Shown here: positions 19,177-33,985 of the stretch, in pieces
Numbering within the stretch: the first letter of the stretch is position 1
How the letters are laid out: the number at the start of each line of letters is the position of its first letter
Source: an uncultured virus (IMG/VR IMGVR_UViG_3300023110_000008)
Taxonomy: Duplodnaviria; Heunggongvirae; Uroviricota; Caudoviricetes
IMG/VR virus record: IMGVR_UViG_3300023110_000008
Reading direction: 5' to 3' (one strand)
Length of the DNA stretch: 64,000 bases
Notes under the pieces: generated by a model
Told to the model about the DNA's origin: nothing
Database searches by the model: none
The model's input: only the letters and a program-made list of their open reading frames with translations
Program-made: the position numbers and the translations under genes

Positions 19177-20553
19177 TACTTTTATAAAGAAACTAGATAC
19201 ATCGGTAGCCGAACTTGCATAACCAAACATTGAGTTAGCAAGTTCGGTTCTTTTTTGGGCATTGCCTGCATAAACGGCATCTAAGAATGCGATACATATC
19301 GCCTTTGAATTGATAAAATTACGATCTTGGCCTTGCACCTCATTCATAAATTCATCCTTTGTTAACACCGACTTCTTAGGTGTTGAATTTTTATTGTGAC
19401 GAACATATCCCTCATAGAGATAATCGTATGCGACATCATCGTCTTTAATAGATTTTAGAAAGTTCGCCTCTGTATCGTATATGGGCGTACTGAATATTTT
19501 ATTCACAAAGAAGTTGACATTACCACCACCGATCTTACCCCCAGCAGCTGCAAGACCTTTAATCTCACCTTGCCATGATGTGTCACCACTAAATGTACGA
19601 AACTGAACAAGTTTATTAGACATGGTAACGTAAATATCCTGTGAACTAAAGAAATCACCTGTTTTACCCCATGACCATGTTTTCCATGATTTATCACTGA
19701 GTTTTGTTCTATTAAATTCTTCTATTTTCTCTCTACTTTCAAGTCGTTTGAGTGAGACACCGAGACATATACCGTCATCTGCCATTTGTAAGACTTTTTT
19801 ATTGAGTTCATCGAATGTATCTATATTTGCGAGTGGTCTTTCGTGTTTAGATAGAGTGGACATCCAGATATCACCTGGGTTCCATTTGTCATCGTTGAAT
19901 GAACCAGGCGCCAAGGGTTTATCAGATTTCTTATCTAATTTCTGGACATGTGCCTTAGCGGAATATAATCCTGCCATAAAGGGAGAACCCCTATGAAAAT
20001 ATACCTTACCTCTGAATTTATTCTTATAGGTCTTATATAATATATTCGCAGTTCGAATATATATTTTCTCATCGAACCACGACTCAGGTGCGCCTTTGTA
20101 TGCCTTAGCTAGGGATACATTCGTATCTGCATAAGACGTGCAACCTGGTTTATTTAATTGTTCGAAGGTGACATTATCCACTTGTTTCTTTGCAACATTA
20201 AAGACATACGAACAATAATAACACTGTAATGACTCATTAATTGCAGTATCGTCTGATCCGCCACCTGAACCACCACTGCCTGCACTGGTTTTACCTGTCT
20301 TTAACAACCTCAATACGAAACCATCGCCCATGTCGACATTGATTTTCGCAGTGTCCTTAGCCTTGAGTTTGCTCTTTATTTTAACAAATGAATCAGTAGG
20401 TAATTTAATTTCATACAATTTTGACCGCTTCGTTAACGCCTTCTCATCACCGAAGAACTTACCATCCTTCAGATTAGACGTTATCAAAGACACATCCACG
20501 ATTCCAGACGTGTGTGCTTTGAGATCCTTTGCTTTGTCGATAATGTATGCCAT
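19171..20553 (-). CDS. PD-(D/E)xK restriction-endonuclease-fold protein
   Basis: NESLQC, DKWNPGDIW...GVSLK motif; late promoter TATAAATA (minus, 20559-20566). Confidence 0.6.
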   Translation of the reverse strand: MAYIIDKAKDLKAHTSGIVDVSLITSNLKDGKFFGDEKALTKRSKLYEIKLPTDSFVKIKSKLKAKDTAKINVDMGDGFVLRLLKTGKTSAGSGGSGGGSDDTAINESLQCYYCSYVFNVAKKQVDNVTFEQLNKPGCTSYADTNVSLAKAYKGAPESWFDEKIYIRTANILYKTYKNKFRGKVYFHRGSPFMAGLYSAKAHVQKLDKKSDKPLAPGSFNDDKWNPGDIWMSTLSKHERPLANIDTFDELNKKVLQMADDGICLGVSLKRLESREKIEEFNRTKLSDKSWKTWSWGKTGDFFSSQDIYVTMSNKLVQFRTFSGDTSWQGEIKGLAAAGGKIGGGNVNFFVNKIFSTPIYDTEANFLKSIKDDDVAYDYLYEGYVRHNKNSTPKKSVLTKDEFMNEVQGQDRNFINSKAICIAFLDAVYAGNAQKRTELANSMFGYASSATDVSSFFIKVS

Positions 20554-20625
20554 AGTGATATTTATACCTTATGACAAATCCACCCCCAACGTCAACCGTC
20601 CATACTGAAAAAGCGATCCGACACC

Positions 20626-20892
20626 CTAAATCCCACCATAGGCTATCAGATTACGGAGTATAAGAACAAACCCCACCGCATTGAGAACGATGAGAGCCCG
20701 ATCATTCCATAACATGGAGACCCAAAACCAGAGAGAAACGCCTATGAGTGAGAGAATACCATCATAGAGAGCGTATTCAGGATTACCTCTAAGGGAGAAT
20801 GCACATAGGAGAATAATAGATGCGATCCATTTCACATACCAGTCGAGACCCCTGTCCTTATGCGCTTTTGAATTTATTTTTGTCTTGGTCAT
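20626..20892 (-). CDS. small 3-TM membrane protein (DUF6552-like)
   Basis: WYVKWIASIILL...LWFWVSMLWNDRALIVLN; SD GAGG upstream. Confidence 0.7.
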   Translation of the reverse strand: MTKTKINSKAHKDRGLDWYVKWIASIILLCAFSLRGNPEYALYDGILSLIGVSLWFWVSMLWNDRALIVLNAVGFVLILRNLIAYGGI

Positions 20893-21010
20893 AGTGCCTC
20901 ATAATATATTGGTGTGCGAAAGTGTGTGATTGTGTGAAATATATTCATGGATATGTAGGTAGGAGTGGAGTGCAATATTTCGGGTTTGTGTGAGCGGGTT
21001 CGTGGGTCTT

Positions 21011-21038
21011 AGCCTATGTATATGTTGAGAGATGTCAA
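21011..21038 (-). promoter_or_regulatory. leftward early promoter
   Basis: Minus strand TTGACA-16-TAGGCT. Confidence 0.6.
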
Positions 21039-21083
21039 GCGATTCAGAGGGCTCGAAAACCCCTATTAATTGAGCTGAAATGC

Positions 21084-21111
21084 TTGACATTTTCGCCCAA
21101 TTTTGTATCCT
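21084..21111 (+). promoter_or_regulatory. rightward early promoter (divergent pair)
   Basis: TTGACA-16-TATCCT. Confidence 0.6.
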
Positions 21112-21117
21112 CCACCA

Positions 21118-21237
21118 TGTCCCCACAAGGTGACATCGACAGTTAGGTCGGTCACGCTTCGGCGGAAGGTGATCAACAAACCTGTTACTTTGAGTGTCAT
21201 GCTCATTGCCCTTACGGTTGAGATGTCACAGTGGACA
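21118..21237 (+). ncRNA. putative structured RNA / 5' leader
   Basis: TGTCC/GGACA and GTGACATC/GATGTCAC closing stems, internal GGTCAC/GTGATC with CGC-TTCG-GCG tetraloop, TGAGT/GCTCA; starts at the predicted TSS. Confidence 0.6.
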
Positions 21238-21257
21238 GTACTTAAGAGAGGTATAAT

Positions 21258-21452
21258 ATGACAAAGGCGGAGTTAAAGGCACAAATAGCGAAGGACATTG
21301 CAGCCTATGTGAGTAAGGGTGGTAAGGTTACCACTACTCCCTATAAGGCGCCTAAGAGTGGCGTCAGTGCATTTGCGAAGGTAGGTCGTTGGTATCGTGG
21401 CGCTCAGGCGTCAACGCATGATCAACGCTGGTCAGCAAACAACACCATATAA
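21258..21452 (+). CDS. small basic protein with SutA-like RNAP-binding motif
   Basis: KAELKAQIAKDIAAYVSKGGKVT resembles Pseudomonas SutA ...LAKAMEEFLSRGGKVQ; SD GAGG. Confidence 0.55.
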   Translation: MTKAELKAQIAKDIAAYVSKGGKVTTTPYKAPKSGVSAFAKVGRWYRGAQASTHDQRWSANNTI

Positions 21453-21485
21453 GGGTTGACAATAACCCTTATATTATGCAAGGAT
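21447..21485 (+). promoter_or_regulatory. early promoter inside an 11-bp perfect inverted repeat
   Basis: ATATAAGGGTT-GACAAT-AACCCTTATAT; TTGACA-18-AAGGAT. Confidence 0.7.
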
Positions 21486-21490
21486 GGTAC

Positions 21491-21685
21491 CCTATTGATG
21501 GTGTTTATTCGTAGTCGATGAAGACGGCGCAATAAACCCCCTATACAACTGCGAGGTCGGTATAGTATAATAGGATCATACACCAGTCATCTGAGAGTAC
21601 TGGTCTTGATCATGCATCATGTGAGAAGTCTCAGAGGGCGCAACCCGAACTGTCGAGCAGGGATGAAAAAGCCTGCACCCCTTTT
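21491..21685 (+). ncRNA. putative multi-domain structured RNA with possible pseudoknot
   Basis: CCTATT/AATAGG enclosing GTTTATT/AATAAAC and CTATAC/GTATAG; GATCA/TGATC with ACCAGT/ACTGGT; loop TCTGAGA complementary to TCTCAGA; GGG-CGCAA-CCC; GCAGG/CCTGC. Confidence 0.6.
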
Positions 21686-21716
21686 AACCACACACATGGA
21701 GGTGGGAGATACCCCT

Positions 21717-21896
21717 ATGTCTGATGAAATAATGTTTAGTATACGCTATTTTGACAAGAACGTGCAAACCATTAACGGTGAGCGTGTCTGGTTTACGTAC
21801 TCAGATGAGCCTTTAAGCGGGTCTGAGGCGTTCTCCATTGTCTCCCTGCTAGAGGATAGGGGTTGCGTAGTAGAATTGACTAGACTGAGCGACTAA
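21717..21896 (+). CDS. hypothetical protein (59 aa)
   Basis: MSDEIMFSIRYF...; GGAG SD upstream; the longer track start overlaps the structured RNA. Confidence 0.55.
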   Translation: MSDEIMFSIRYFDKNVQTINGERVWFTYSDEPLSGSEAFSIVSLLEDRGCVVELTRLSD

Positions 21897-21980
21897 AAAC
21901 AGTCGGAGAGCATTTCGGCATGTCGGTCCACGTCAGTTAAGCGGTTGGGGTGACCACATAAATGGAAGTAAAAAGCAAAT

Positions 21981-22139
21981 ATGTTTAGACAACCTGATTA
22001 TAAAAAATTTTTTTTGGGGTTCCTTGTGTTCTCCATACTTTTTTTACTCTGGTACAAGTACGCCACGTACGGTTGTATCGGTATGTGTATGGATTGGTAC
22101 GATGATATCCCCCTAGATGGGCTAGATAGATTAGCATGA
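21981..22139 (+). CDS. small membrane protein (52 aa)
   Basis: MFRQPDYKKFFLGFLVFSILFLLWYKY..., one TM. Confidence 0.5.
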   Translation: MFRQPDYKKFFLGFLVFSILFLLWYKYATYGCIGMCMDWYDDIPLDGLDRLA

Positions 22140-22155
22140 GAGAGATGAAATAGCG

Positions 22156-22278
22156 ATGAAAGAGATATTTCTTTTTGGCATTAAGTGTTTATTGTATCCA
22201 CTCTTTGTGTTATTGGGATTATTCATTCCCGTCTTCCTATTATTACTAGGATACACGTATCTTATCTCACTACTATGA
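22156..22278 (+). CDS. small hydrophobic peptide (40 aa)
   Basis: MKEIFLFGIKCLLYPLFVLLGLFIPVFLLLLGYTYLISLL*, ATGA-coupled to the Bfd gene. Confidence 0.5.
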   Translation: MKEIFLFGIKCLLYPLFVLLGLFIPVFLLLLGYTYLISLL

Positions 22279-22457
22279 TACTATGTGTCTGTAAGGCGAT
22301 CACGGAGAGCGAATTTAAATCTCTTTTAGAGCATAACACACTAGAGGCAATTATCGAGGACACTGGTATCTGTACACAGTGTACGTCTTGTAAGCCTCGT
22401 ATCACTGAAATAATATTGGATAAAGCACATGAGTCAATCAGCAAGGCAACGTCATAA
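22275..22457 (+). CDS. bfd: bacterioferritin-associated ferredoxin-like [2Fe-2S] protein
   Basis: MILCVCKAIT...TGICTQCTSC (CxC...CxxC). Confidence 0.8.
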   Translation: MILCVCKAITESEFKSLLEHNTLEAIIEDTGICTQCTSCKPRITEIILDKAHESISKATS

Positions 22458-22644
22458 AGAGACTGCAATCACGGTCTTTACTGGTCTTCTAATTAATTAT
22501 CCCCTTAATCTATTGGGATTGTATATTTGCATTGATTATTTTAATATGACTGATCCCTTTTGGATAGGTACTACTATTACCTTTTATATGACATTCTTAG
22601 CTTATGCGAGGGTGTTTATTATAAGGAGTTACTTCAACAAATGA
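22429..22644 (+). CDS. small membrane protein
   Basis: Two hydrophobic segments; ET...VFTGLLINYPL...R.FIIR.YF. Confidence 0.65.
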   Translation: MSQSARQRHKETAITVFTGLLINYPLNLLGLYICIDYFNMTDPFWIGTTITFYMTFLAYARVFIIRSYFNK

Positions 22645-23126
22645 TTCATGTGACAAGGATATCGGAAATGGAAAGTATGGCCGATGAGATTTTGCAGTGT
22701 GCAATTGTTCAACGCCCTATTCAATCTGATCCTGGTTATATTAATTATCCTATTGTGACGCCTTACGATACTTTTTTGTATACTCGTTTTTACGATGCAT
22801 GTCAAAGACATTATGGACCTTTTGAACTTGCTGATAATGACTTTCGTATGCATGCCTTTTTAACAGATAACAAGTTTCATGGAGGCGGTCACTACCACGA
22901 TCATGTCTCGACAGCAACGTATAATGCGGCTCTCTATGTTTCTACGGTACAGGGATGCGGAATCTCGTTTGTGTTTGGACACGATGAGATTTATTACGAA
23001 CCGAAGGTAGGCGATATGTATATCTTTGAGTCTCACGTGCAACACAAGGCTCATCCTTCATCCCATCAAAAAAGATTATCATTAAATTTAGAAATACGAG
23101 CAAAAACCCCCTTGCACTCGGAGTAA
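22641..23126 (+). CDS. 2OG-Fe(II) oxygenase-like protein
   Basis: YHDH...YNAALY...PKVGDMYIFES.VQH...RLSLNLE; start taken at MIHVT. Confidence 0.7.
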   Translation: MIHVTRISEMESMADEILQCAIVQRPIQSDPGYINYPIVTPYDTFLYTRFYDACQRHYGPFELADNDFRMHAFLTDNKFHGGGHYHDHVSTATYNAALYVSTVQGCGISFVFGHDEIYYEPKVGDMYIFESHVQHKAHPSSHQKRLSLNLEIRAKTPLHSE

Positions 23127-23139
23127 AACTGAGTATAAT
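23112..23139 (+). promoter_or_regulatory. sigma70-type promoter
   Basis: TTGCAC-16-TATAAT upstream of the DUF262-HNH gene. Confidence 0.6.
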
Positions 23140-23142
23140 GGA

Positions 23143-23190
23143 ATCATGGCAATTACGCCAATACACAACATCATGACAATTTACGTCAAT
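23143..23190 (+). repeat. tandem covarying palindromic operator-like repeat
   Basis: ATCA-TGGC-AATTAC-GCCA-AT and ATCA-TGAC-AATTTAC-GTCA-AT, directly before SD AAGGAG. Confidence 0.7.
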
Positions 23191-23204
23191 TAAGGAGAAA
23201 AATT

Positions 23205-24605
23205 ATGTTGTACCCAAAAGAGGTGAAGTTAGAACTACCACCAGAAAAAATTGTTCTTACACTACGAGAGTTGTTGTTTGACGGTTATACGTTAGACGAT
23301 GGTTCTTCATTCGTTATCGGTATGGTTGACACTCAACCAGTAGGTCAGAGGTTAGAAGTAACCACAGACACCGAGAAATCAGAAGGCATTATCACAAGCA
23401 TCATCGATAATATTAATATCGGTGAGATTACTGTTTGTGCTTCGCCTGATAATCCTGAAGGTTATGCTTACGAGTCTATTGACGGCGGTCATAGAAAAAG
23501 AGCAATCATCAACTACATCACAGGTAGAGGTCAGAAGGCCTTTACAGTGCGAGGGTTGAAATTCAGAGAACTTCCACAGGAAGAACAAGACGCCATGCTT
23601 GACAAGAAAGTCACAGTGGTGATCTATCCTATATTAGACACCTTTGTTAAGGGTTACATATTCAGAACTCTTAACATTGCAACCGATGTCAATCACCAAG
23701 AAATGTGTAACTCATTTGGTGACATTGATGTCGCTAACGTCATACGTGAAGCCGTTCGTGTTGTCGATGGTATTTGGAATACCACACACGAGTTGTTCGA
23801 AAGAACAGCATCAGGTCACTTCAAACTCTTAGAGTTCAACAATTTGAGATTGAAGACCGATGAGTTAGTGGCACGAATTATGTTTCGTTTGACACAGAAA
23901 ACAAAACTTGGTGAATCTTCGGATGCCCAAGTTCGAAAAATGTACGAAGAGTTTGACGGTGATATTGAGTCACTGAAGATCGAACTCTACAAAGTGTTAG
24001 ACTACCTAAGAATCATGGCAGTCATACACAAGCAACAGTTCGGCAAAGGACTGTCACAACAAGACTTTAAATTGTTGACCTTTTTGTTCTACTGGTTACT
24101 AGACGAAGTAGGAACTTTTTCGATTGATGACCCTAAAAGTTATTTGGTCGATTACAAGAAGGCCTTTGCGACATTAACCAACCATGCAGGCAAATACGGT
24201 AAGATGATGAATCCTACCGACATTGATCAGAAACCACGTTTCATTTCAGAATCGTTTAAAGGTTATCTTGGTGCACCGCATCACAAGAGAAAGATCGAAC
24301 AAGTCGTGCATTGGTTACTCTTAGAGTTTACACCGACACAATACATCGTTGCGAAGGATAAGAAGAGAACTTATACTTACGAAGAGAAAGTGAGAAAACT
24401 CTTAGACCAAAACTTCATTTGTGCCATCACTGGTGACAAAGTCACAATGGATGATTGTGAAGCAGCCCACATTGTTTCACACTCAGACGGTGGTTATACT
24501 ACTTACGATAACTTTGTGATGTGTCGAACAGAACACAACAGAGCCATGGGTAGTATGAACCTTGAAGATTATAAAGAAACCTACTTGAAGAATCTCAACA
24601 AGTAG
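23205..24605 (+). CDS. DUF262 (ParB-like) + HNH nuclease, GmrSD-like architecture
   Basis: IDGGHRKRAI (DGQQR-like), FRTLN; C-terminal CAITG...AAHIVSHSDGG.T..DN..C..HN. Confidence 0.8.
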   Translation: MLYPKEVKLELPPEKIVLTLRELLFDGYTLDDGSSFVIGMVDTQPVGQRLEVTTDTEKSEGIITSIIDNINIGEITVCASPDNPEGYAYESIDGGHRKRAIINYITGRGQKAFTVRGLKFRELPQEEQDAMLDKKVTVVIYPILDTFVKGYIFRTLNIATDVNHQEMCNSFGDIDVANVIREAVRVVDGIWNTTHELFERTASGHFKLLEFNNLRLKTDELVARIMFRLTQKTKLGESSDAQVRKMYEEFDGDIESLKIELYKVLDYLRIMAVIHKQQFGKGLSQQDFKLLTFLFYWLLDEVGTFSIDDPKSYLVDYKKAFATLTNHAGKYGKMMNPTDIDQKPRFISESFKGYLGAPHHKRKIEQVVHWLLLEFTPTQYIVAKDKKRTYTYEEKVRKLLDQNFICAITGDKVTMDDCEAAHIVSHSDGGYTTYDNFVMCRTEHNRAMGSMNLEDYKETYLKNLNK

Positions 24606-33710: not shown

Positions 33711-33959
33711 ATGTCTAACTATTCGTGTTACGAAGACAGTAAAGCTGTCAAACAACTCGTAGCGTATGGTCGTCACATGATTACATTATGTGAAGAAAAC
33801 AAACTATATCCCAAAGACGATTTGATGTGGAATGCAGCCGTTGTATGTGGCAATAAGTTAACTACAATAGGAACACCATGGTCTCGTATCAAATCCGTCA
33901 CTGATTTGACTGAGAATGAACGTATTGCCTTGAGACATTATCTTGACGTTAAGGGTTGA
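33711..33959 (+). CDS. hypothetical protein
   Basis: MSNYSCY...; SD AGGAG. Confidence 0.7.
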   Translation: MSNYSCYEDSKAVKQLVAYGRHMITLCEENKLYPKDDLMWNAAVVCGNKLTTIGTPWSRIKSVTDLTENERIALRHYLDVKG

Positions 33960-33985
33960 CAATGACCCCCAAAAAATGTAAGGAT
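33951..33985 (+). promoter_or_regulatory. early promoter with hairpin around -35
   Basis: GGGTT-GACAAT-GACCC; TTGACA-18-AAGGAT; near-identical to the 11536 copy. Confidence 0.75.

Follow-up and report, generated by a model that had tools for sequence, protein, structure and literature searches.

Among the closest described counterparts of the RNA element reported here is the autoregulatory operator of gene 32 in phage T4. There, an H-type pseudoknot occupies the extreme 5′ end of the mRNA leader, is separated by tens of nucleotides from an exposed ribosome-binding site downstream and acts in cis in a gene-specific manner. This operator, too, is without an Rfam model (PMC10690425). The same features are found in, or predicted for, a leader in the DNA of an uncultured T4-like myovirus (IMG/VR record IMGVR_UViG_3300023110_000008), of which we analysed a stretch of 64,000 nt; this stretch is called the window here and all coordinates refer to it. 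The leader precedes an open reading frame (ORF) at position 21717 that encodes a protein of 59 aa, ORF59. Gene 32 codes for a protein that binds single-stranded DNA, whereas the product of ORF59 is an acidic orphan, and because of this different gene the leader is not a member of the gene 32 operator. Furthermore, the tract between knot and ribosome-binding site is unstructured in gene 32, whereas two hairpins (P3 and P4) stand there in the present leader. No sequence likeness between the two was seen, and protein binding is putative in the present case.

Pseudoknotted riboswitch aptamers (preQ1-II/III, SAM-II/V, fluoride, ZTP), which are sometimes carried by phages, are likewise small pseudoknots in 5′ untranslated regions (UTRs) with invariant loop or junction bases and covarying stems. 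However, the leader of ORF59 has no Rfam match, no expression platform and a non-metabolic gene context. With 5′ stabilisers such as the ompA leader and with viral exoribonuclease-resistant RNAs (xrRNAs) it has in common that the structure begins a few nucleotides from the predicted 5′ end. The xrRNAs of plant viruses also share its layout, in which a hairpin loop at the very 5′ end pairs with a downstream sequence; the ring-like fold of xrRNAs would be putative in the leader. For a generic 5′ stabiliser, its sequence conservation is far greater than that function needs. The leader is an RNA family not yet catalogued, of a known, probably operator- or stabiliser-like kind.

A conserved pseudoknotted leader in six phage lineages

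The original prediction for this region was a multi-domain structured RNA of ~195 nt starting at 21491. All the inverted repeats that it listed, from CCTATT (21491–21496)/AATAGG (21569–21574) through to TTTT (21682–21685), are present and correctly located. The unit itself was drawn too long: as judged from homologous sequences, the conserved unit is the ~140-nt 5′ leader of ORF59 at 21578–21716, i.e., only the 3′ part of the stretch first described, whereas the first domain and the GATCA/TGATC pairing exist only in the lineage of the window, upstream of the conserved promoter. Eleven distinct full-length leaders were collected from IMG/VR, JGI/ENA metagenomes and one contig of a metagenome-assembled genome (MAG). 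They form lineages A (the window, the G001 contig, L025 and L034), B (L002), C (L028 = L029, L030 and L033), D (L031 = L032), E (L043/L083) and F (L085), and it is on the comparison across these six that the conservation of the fold rests. We consider it highly probable that the fold exists as a maintained RNA structure.

The first element, the P1 hairpin (Table 1), has an 11-nt loop that reads CATCT[G/C]AGAGT in all lineages, with only the central base varying, on a stem in which three pairs are changed on both sides. Seven of the loop bases pair with a strand further downstream. When each lineage was represented by one sequence and the anchors were placed by script, P1 was paired in register in 30 of 30 cells versus 5–15 of 30 when slid, and the pseudoknot had 42 of 42 canonical cells versus 6–30 of 42. 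The pseudoknot duplex has an energy of −10.0 kcal/mol. Its central pair is G:C in four lineages (A, B, D and E), whereas C and F have C:G. Because C falls within the group of G:C lineages while F lies outside it, the change either occurred two or more times or was spread by recombination. The geometry of the knot (2 nt, 7 bp, 2 nt and a third loop of 20–25 nt) presumably suits a classical H-type pseudoknot. The TCTGAGA/TCTCAGA pairing, proposed at the outset as a possible pseudoknot, has thereby become the best-supported feature of all. The hairpin suggested as its alternative, TGAG-AAGT-CTCA, can be discarded, for lineage C lacks the complementary arm.

These counts were complemented by a shuffling analysis of P1 and the pseudoknot on alignment A11 (8 sequences, 13 pairs), in which 98% of 101 cells were paired. 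Four pairs were changed on both sides, against a mean of 1.4 in shuffles (6 of 500 as high), and the covariation score was 0.181 against 0.038 (0 of 500 as high). When A11 was slid by one to three columns, 29–47% of the cells were paired and 0–1 double changes remained. MAFFT gaps in A11 hide two outer P1 pairs of lineage E. The whole-leader MAFFT alignments (A2, A4 and A7) misplaced P1 of lineage E, the 3′ strand of the pseudoknot in C and F, and P4, and a covariance model built from A7 carried over its errors (A9); therefore, P1 and the pseudoknot were counted on the shorter A11 and P4 by anchored scripts.

P4 occurs as four complementary stems: GCAGG/CCTGC in A and B, TGGGGG/CCCCCA in C, GCAAGG/CCTTGC in D and E, and a 7-bp stem of the GGTGGTG/CACCACC type in F. 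With the same fitting freedom at arbitrary places in the loci, chance yields stems of at least 5 bp in 14–21%, of at least 6 bp in 5–11% and of at least 7 bp in 1.6–4.8% of cases. On this comparative evidence, pairing in P1, the pseudoknot and P4 is kept through compensatory changes. Covariation among homologues, which had been named as the check on the predicted structure, is thus present in these elements and not in the hairpins of the 5′ half, which are not conserved. In lineages A, B, D, E and F, P3 consists of an invariant GGG/CCC with the loop CGCAA, CGGAT or CGGAA; lineage C has GGATGTCTACC in its place, with 2 pairs only. Since it shows no covariation, P3 is unproven. The linker between P1 and the 3′ strand of the knot may form a mini-hairpin (CATG 21611–21614/CATG 21618–21621 in the window), which is weak and variable: a 3–7 bp AT-rich hairpin of different sequence is possible in each lineage, with −0.5 to −3.0 kcal/mol.

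Table 1. Features of the ORF59 leader and its upstream region (window coordinates; A–F, lineages).
Feature	Position	Strand	Sequence	Basis or remark
Composite hairpin/putative promoter	21447–21474	+	arms TATAAGGGTT / AACCCTTATA, 10–11 bp	terminator-like scan
5′ domain	21491–21575	+	CCTATT/AATAGG closing GTTTATT/AATAAAC (inner GTC-GATGAA-GAC) and CTATAC/GTATAG	lineage-specific, holds leader promoter
Leader promoter, sigma70-type	−35 21542–21547; −10 21566–21571	+	TATACA, 18-nt spacer, TATAAT	promoter scan, 10/12
P1 hairpin	21582–21587 / 21599–21604; loop 21588–21598	+	ACCAGT/ACTGGT; 11-nt loop CATCTGAGAGT	covariation
P1 stem, A, B, F			CCAGT/ACTGG	
P1 stem, C			ACCGT/ACGGT	
P1 stem, D			CACAGT/ACTGTG	
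P1 stem, E			AGAGT/ACTCT	
Pseudoknot, 5′ strand	21590–21596	+	TCTGAGA	within P1 loop, pairs with 21629–21635
Linker, P1 to pseudoknot 3′ strand	21605–21628	+	20–25 nt, ends in conserved TGAAG/GAAAG	
Pseudoknot, 3′ strand	21629–21635	+	TCTCAGA	pairs with 21590–21596
P3 mini-hairpin	21636–21646 (GGG 21636–21638 / CCC 21644–21646)	+	GGG-CGCAA-CCC, then conserved GAAC(T)	unproven
P4 hairpin	21657–21661 / 21672–21676	+	GCAGG/CCTGC; loop of 10–11 nt with conserved ATGA[AG]A	compensatory stems
Single-stranded linker and translation initiation region	21677–21716	+		alignments
ORF59	21717–21896	+	59 aa, acidic orphan	always behind leader

Selection on the leader and RNA evidence

In distant lineage pairs, the nucleotide identity of the leader equals or exceeds that of the ORF (leader/ORF: A–B 83/72%, A–E 73/62%, B–E 79/66%, D–E 84/62%, A–F 66/56%). 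The leader of lineage C was remodelled (C–D 71% in the leader versus 91% in the ORF), yet P1, the knot and P4 were retained. Within lineage A, all microvariants (21572 A>G, 21581 C>A, 21611 C>T, 21695 C>T and, at 21682, a T-run shorter by one base) lie outside P1, the knot, P3 and P4.

The stretch was found in 20 sequencing runs, the best of which are labelled salt-marsh metagenomes, and six of the 20 are RNA libraries. Contigs from four metatranscriptome runs cover ~21130–21990, and single RNA contigs bridge the leader and ORF59 (21530–21946 and 21360–21876). This coverage fits read-through from a conserved promoter at 21084–21111 across the leader and ORF59. A higher contig depth over 21536–21757 than over the ORF (X13, X15) was set aside, as depth cannot rank parts of a gene. 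In three runs the RNA contigs end near 21926–21990, a weak hint of termination after ORF59, and in three runs there is no RNA cover at 20500–21090 and 22000–22400, which is a hint only.

Family membership, coding potential and copy number

The leader matches no Rfam family. With Rfam 15, the whole window yielded three tRNAs only at the gathering threshold; the region 21300–21950 gave two chance snoRNA-like hits at E ≤ 10 (17 and 10 bits, where the gathering scores are 35 and 41), and the five loci of lineages B to F gave one unrelated match elsewhere at E ≤ 1. Fremin et al. (2023) predicted 10,006 viral structured RNAs from IMG/VR (PMC10690425). The searchable supplements of that study contain neither the loop motif nor any of the three contig ids; we found no description of the leader in the literature, and a prior listing in that study is possible, two of its large supplement files being unsearchable.

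Stops interrupt all three frames of the leader in lineages B, D, E and F, and homologous leader bases fall in different frames relative to ORF59. In the window, the frame upstream of the ATG at 21717 is open as far as TTG 21606, giving an ORF of 96 aa; this open frame and the extended gene calls P0001 and P0002 were rejected as accidents of lineage A. An upstream ORF beginning at the ATG of the P4 loop was rejected as well, as its peptides differ wherever the stem differs. The original prediction of a structured non-coding leader of ORF 21717 without a known family is, hence, borne out. With a covariance model (R1), the window and all four records searched (4/4) had a single strong match apiece, the remaining hits having E values of 0.08–0.9; the leader is single-copy.

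P4 followed by TTTT might be read as a terminator-like end. This reading fails: P4 is followed by a spacer of 3–5 nt (ACCCC, AAAC or AAC) before a run of 3–6 T in lineages A to E, F has AATATTATAGG and no T-run, and the terminator scan did not call it. RNA contigs run across P4. We also looked for sequestration of the Shine–Dalgarno (SD) sequence by a pseudoknot strand or by CTCC and found no conserved partner among the lineages; in ensemble folds the SD has an unpaired probability of 0.33–0.84, and its best partners differ from lineage to lineage.

Candidate promoters and the 5′ half of the predicted element

In five of the six lineages, exactly 6 nt separate the conserved 5′ end (AUA.. or ACA..) from a −10 hexamer upstream of it; lineage B is ambiguous. 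Lineage A has TATAAT as this hexamer, lineages C to E have TAGGAT and F has TG-n-TATAAT, and a −35-like hexamer stands 17–18 nt further upstream. From these hexamers, the RNA likely starts at A21578, and the conserved start is ~87 nt downstream of the transcription start site (TSS) of the original prediction. The earlier TSS at ~21491 does fit a candidate promoter further upstream (TTGACA 21456–21461, 18-nt spacer, AAGGAT 21480–21485; predicted start ~21491–21492), whose motif TTGACAAT[GA]ACCC marks cassette borders and is kept in four lineages (A, B, C and F), but the conserved RNA is predicted to start at the second promoter. The −35-like TTGACA of the upstream promoter lies in the loop of the composite hairpin, which directly follows the stop of ORF 21258–21452.

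Where the window has its 5′ domain, lineages B, C and F start a small ORF (ATGATGAGA...), the frame of which stops after 7 codons in the window; lineage D has a small ORF there, too, with another continuation. Neither the hairpins of the 5′ half nor GATCA/TGATC are kept in any other lineage, and lineage A shows no variation there. The segment 21491–21575 is probably the decayed remnant of a small-ORF cassette that now carries the leader promoter. The sequence 21491–21577 is unusually stable in the window phage (z −2.79; 2 of 200 shuffles), because of which the segment may have a lineage-specific role. The minimum free energy of 21491–21690 is no better than that of shuffles (z −1.46 on the plus and −1.08 on the minus strand).

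These surroundings resemble the PeSL terminator/promoter cassettes of the hyperplastic regions of T4-type phages (PMC4122927): in both cases a hairpin with a sigma70-like early promoter, a putative one here, is repeated between small variable ORFs and marks lineage boundaries. The PeSLs correspond to the flanks and not to the leader, and in the present case the −35 lies in the hairpin loop and the −10 is like TAGGAT or AAGGAT. The motif AGGGTTGACA has 9 matches in the window at ≤1 mismatch versus 3.7 expected, a number attained by 3 of 100 shuffles. This promoter/hairpin motif has additional exact or near copies at 33952–33961, 11536, 17328 and 23322; the sequence suggests that they are more PeSL-like cassette borders of this genome, with a putative promoter or terminator role.

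ORF59 and its translation start

The SD sequence GGAG (21705–21708) stands inside GGAGAT, which is invariant in all six lineages, and this strong SD and the ATG (21705–21719) are kept in six of six. Further upstream, CTTTTAAC at 21681–21688 corresponds to CTTTAAC in lineages B to E and is absent in F. The protein belongs to no Pfam or PHROG family, and its own family is tiny, with 6 clusters in a set of 5.8 billion proteins and 14 representatives at E ≤ 1e-3 in 1.84 billion proteins, ~10 of them of similar length. Its AF2 model is a small beta-beta-alpha-beta fold (pLDDT 84), for which no convincing structural relative was found (Foldseek, best E 0.44; VIA, best Z 5.1, within a range that is common; Atlas, best 0.84 and without a family). 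With an isoelectric point (pI) of 4.3–6.3, ORF59 may be a small early protein whose binding partner is not RNA but another protein.

Proposed function and alternatives

With modest confidence, we favour the reading that the leader is a gene-specific, cis-acting operator recognised by a protein and/or a 5′ stabiliser. Host RNA polymerase would transcribe it from the sigma70-type early promoter with the −10 at 21566–21571, and in the window phage, transcripts from promoters further upstream would cross it as well. About 4 nt from the 5′ end, an H-type pseudoknot would form from P1 (5–6 bp) and seven loop bases that pair 20–25 nt downstream; P3 and P4 would come next, followed by an unstructured linker of ~30–40 nt to a strong, exposed SD. 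The leader would act in cis and after transcription on ORF59 alone, with a phage or host protein binding it in trans and setting translation and/or the half-life of the message. The 5′-terminal knot would, in addition, shield the 5′ end from end-dependent decay, a role that fits its position. Both the T4 gene 32 operator and the hairpins of 5′ stabilisers function in this manner, and the leader belongs to neither family. Invariant unpaired bases occur in the P1 loop, in the GUGAAG before the 3′ strand of the knot and in the P4 loop AUGA(A/G)A. Their large number, together with the lack of an SD-sequestering alternative, points to a recognition surface for a specific partner, be it a protein or a ligand.

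Several observations weigh against this reading. So large a number of invariant unpaired bases would be superfluous in a plain 5′ stabiliser, and for a putative operator there is no known candidate binding protein; autoregulation by the gene's own product, the simplest operator model, is unattractive because ORF59 is acidic. The comparison comprises only six lineages, six of the seven pseudoknot pairs are invariant, P3 shows no covariation and is absent in C, and no G-U pair sets the plus-strand RNA apart from its complement. The nested fold of 21578–21716, calculated without pseudoknots, is no more stable than shuffles (z +0.55). The TSS was placed by its hexamers, and a clean −10 at this distance is missing in lineage B. 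Finally, the RNA contigs show neither ends, strand nor level and come from runs chosen for holding the stretch.

Among the alternatives, a riboswitch, i.e., a pseudoknotted aptamer for a host metabolite or ion that tunes the translation of ORF59 or the elongation of its transcript, is unlikely in our view. The aptamer part is well matched: the pseudoknot is compact, many of the unpaired nucleotides are invariant, the stems covary and the element is located in the 5′ UTR directly after the promoter. As no known family is matched, a new class would be conceivable. It is the expression platform that is missing: the SD is exposed, no alternative pairing of it is conserved, and the lack of a switch helix argues against a classical riboswitch platform, while P4, with its spacer and a T-run that is short or, in F, lacking, is no terminator. 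In lineage C, other sequence stands in place of P3 and the conserved stretch flanking it. The gene under control encodes an acidic orphan and is not a metabolic or transport gene, and the element occurs in one copy, tied to a single gene family.

We likewise think it improbable that the knot is a nuclease block, halting the 5′-end-dependent or 5′-to-3′ decay of read-through RNA by RNase E or RNase J and leaving a stable ORF59 mRNA or a trans-acting leader fragment. The analogy to the layout of plant-virus xrRNAs speaks for this idea, as do the upstream promoters in the window and in lineage B, which would put the knot inside longer transcripts. Yet no discrete end is predicted after P4, and contig depths cannot rank the parts of the transcript. 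For an autonomous RNA device new to DNA phages, be it an xrRNA-like 5′ knot that stops the host's 5′-end-dependent or 5′-to-3′ RNA decay, whereby read-through RNA from the upstream cassettes is trimmed to a protected ORF59 message, or a new riboswitch class that senses a host metabolite to time an early takeover protein, we see a small chance.

Very unlikely, in turn, is an antitermination RNA that lets RNA polymerase cross the hairpin/promoter cassettes of the hyperplastic region, in the manner of the put sites of phage HK022, each put being two stem-loops. In favour of it, the highly conserved leader lies directly behind an early promoter, promoters fused to terminator-like hairpins abound around it, and a translational switch is missing. 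However, it is always tied to ORF59 while the genes further downstream vary, it bears no resemblance to put and matches nothing in Rfam, and the ends of the RNA contigs at ~21926–21990 in three runs are a weak hint that transcription terminates after ORF59. Hardly any weight can be given to the idea that there is no RNA function at all and that the region is a DNA-level element (recombination cassette or operator), a product of recent common descent or an extension of the ORF to 96 aa from TTG 21606, for although it lies among mobile promoter/hairpin cassettes, the frame is open to 21606 and gene callers extended the ORF in P0001, P0002, P0009 and P0011, a coding region is contradicted by the interrupted and shifting frames and by the strong SD and ATG kept in all lineages, and compensatory double changes and a base-pair insertion in P4 are unexpected for a DNA site or a coding sequence.

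Carrier phages and homologue searches

The carriers of the leader are uncultured T4-like marine and salt-marsh phages of ~185–210 kb. The RNase H encoded in the window is at most 47.8% identical to RNase H of T4-like cyanomyoviruses, and related contigs of 22–52 kb are 10–28% complete according to CheckV. Among GenBank phages, blastn with window 20000–24000 gave no match, and tblastn with ORF59 at E ≤ 1 gave none among 50,697 records. At the protein level, ORF59 of lineages B, C and D is mutually 88–93% identical, that of A is 69–72% identical to these, and E (54–62%) and F (37–43%) are more distant.

Three IMG/VR contigs were judged to be real relatives. The metagenome scan, whose queries were peptide patterns from lineages A to D, gave 10 real loci out of 12 (L025–L034), and a scan of genome contigs yielded the MAG contig L085. 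Besides the 11 full-length leaders, two of these loci (L026 and L027) hold pieces of the leader that are ended by contig edges. The remaining two loci of the metagenome scan (L035 and L036) and L084 were spurious protein matches and were dropped. Scans of IMG/VR with 16- and 15-mers returned mostly chance matches (two real contigs from 14 stretches, then 2 of 6, 2 of 5 and 3 of 36); in the 36-stretch scan, a loose second-strand test flagged four, and L060 was a chance match.

L085 is the 111-kb contig CAZOIZ010000001.1, filed as an uncultured Rhodobacterales MAG. As the promoter motif, the leader and ORF59 occur on it just as in the phage sequences, it probably belongs to a phage and was binned with the MAG, or else it hints at the host. 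The N-terminal extensions of gene calls P0009 and P0011 read as translated leader-like sequence, which hints at two further lineages.

Neighbouring features

The stretch is GC-rich, as had been noted (0.445–0.48 versus ~0.36–0.41 in the flanks), though it sits inside a wider island at ~20500–22000 with a GC content of 0.42–0.485. This island spans a DUF6552 gene (20626–20892, minus strand), non-coding blocks and ORF59 and looks like a cassette region of different origin.

Upstream, the promoter at 21084–21111 (GCTTGACA..16 nt..TATCCT) is common to lineages A to D. It is followed by ~130–145 nt of conserved non-coding sequence, nearly identical in A and B and present in a different version in C and D. 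Long-range complementary arms occur in 21082–21257, e.g., GTGACATC / GATGTCAC in the window, and in lineage B a closing helix is followed by T6. The block 21112–21245 has a weak consensus fold (−5.65 kcal/mol). RNA contigs begin at ~21130–21141 in four runs, one of which also has a contig at 21008–21157. The region 21082–21257 may be a separate small RNA or leader. The 64-aa ORF at 21258–21452 exists in lineage A only and has a sub-threshold match to the RNA-polymerase-binding domain of SutA (PF20661; E 1.4e-5; 24.8 bits versus a cut-off of 29.3); it is possibly a small phage protein that touches host RNA polymerase.

Downstream, the 3′ UTRs of ORF59 (window 21897–22025; L002 1085–1185; L083 1675–1765; L085 1812–1930) share the blocks AACAGT after the stop, TCCAC and TTAAG and close with an A6-T6/8 run, behind which stands GGGG or CGG; L032 has a comparable A/T run after the next gene. 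Their consensus fold (−1.29 kcal/mol) gave nothing clear. The 90-aa ORF at 22185–22457 contains a BFD-like [2Fe-2S]-binding domain (PF04324; E 2.7e-7; above the cut-off) and is followed by DUF7220 and an ORF resembling 2-oxoglutarate- and Fe(II)-dependent (2OG-Fe(II)) oxygenases. Other lineages carry different small ORFs between ORF59 and the DUF7220 gene.

Significance for T4-like marine phages

To our knowledge, structured phage leaders with proven pseudoknots are rare. In the leader of ORF59, a compact pseudoknot that is backed by covariation and shows a naturally occurring G:C to C:G swap is tied to a single, tiny orphan early gene. It provides a defined handle for finding and annotating the ORF59 module and a clean test case for the protection or control of early phage messages, and it indicates that leaders of this kind travel as cassettes between promoter/hairpin motifs. 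If it proved to block nucleases or to sense a ligand, it would be without precedent in the T4-like marine phage group.

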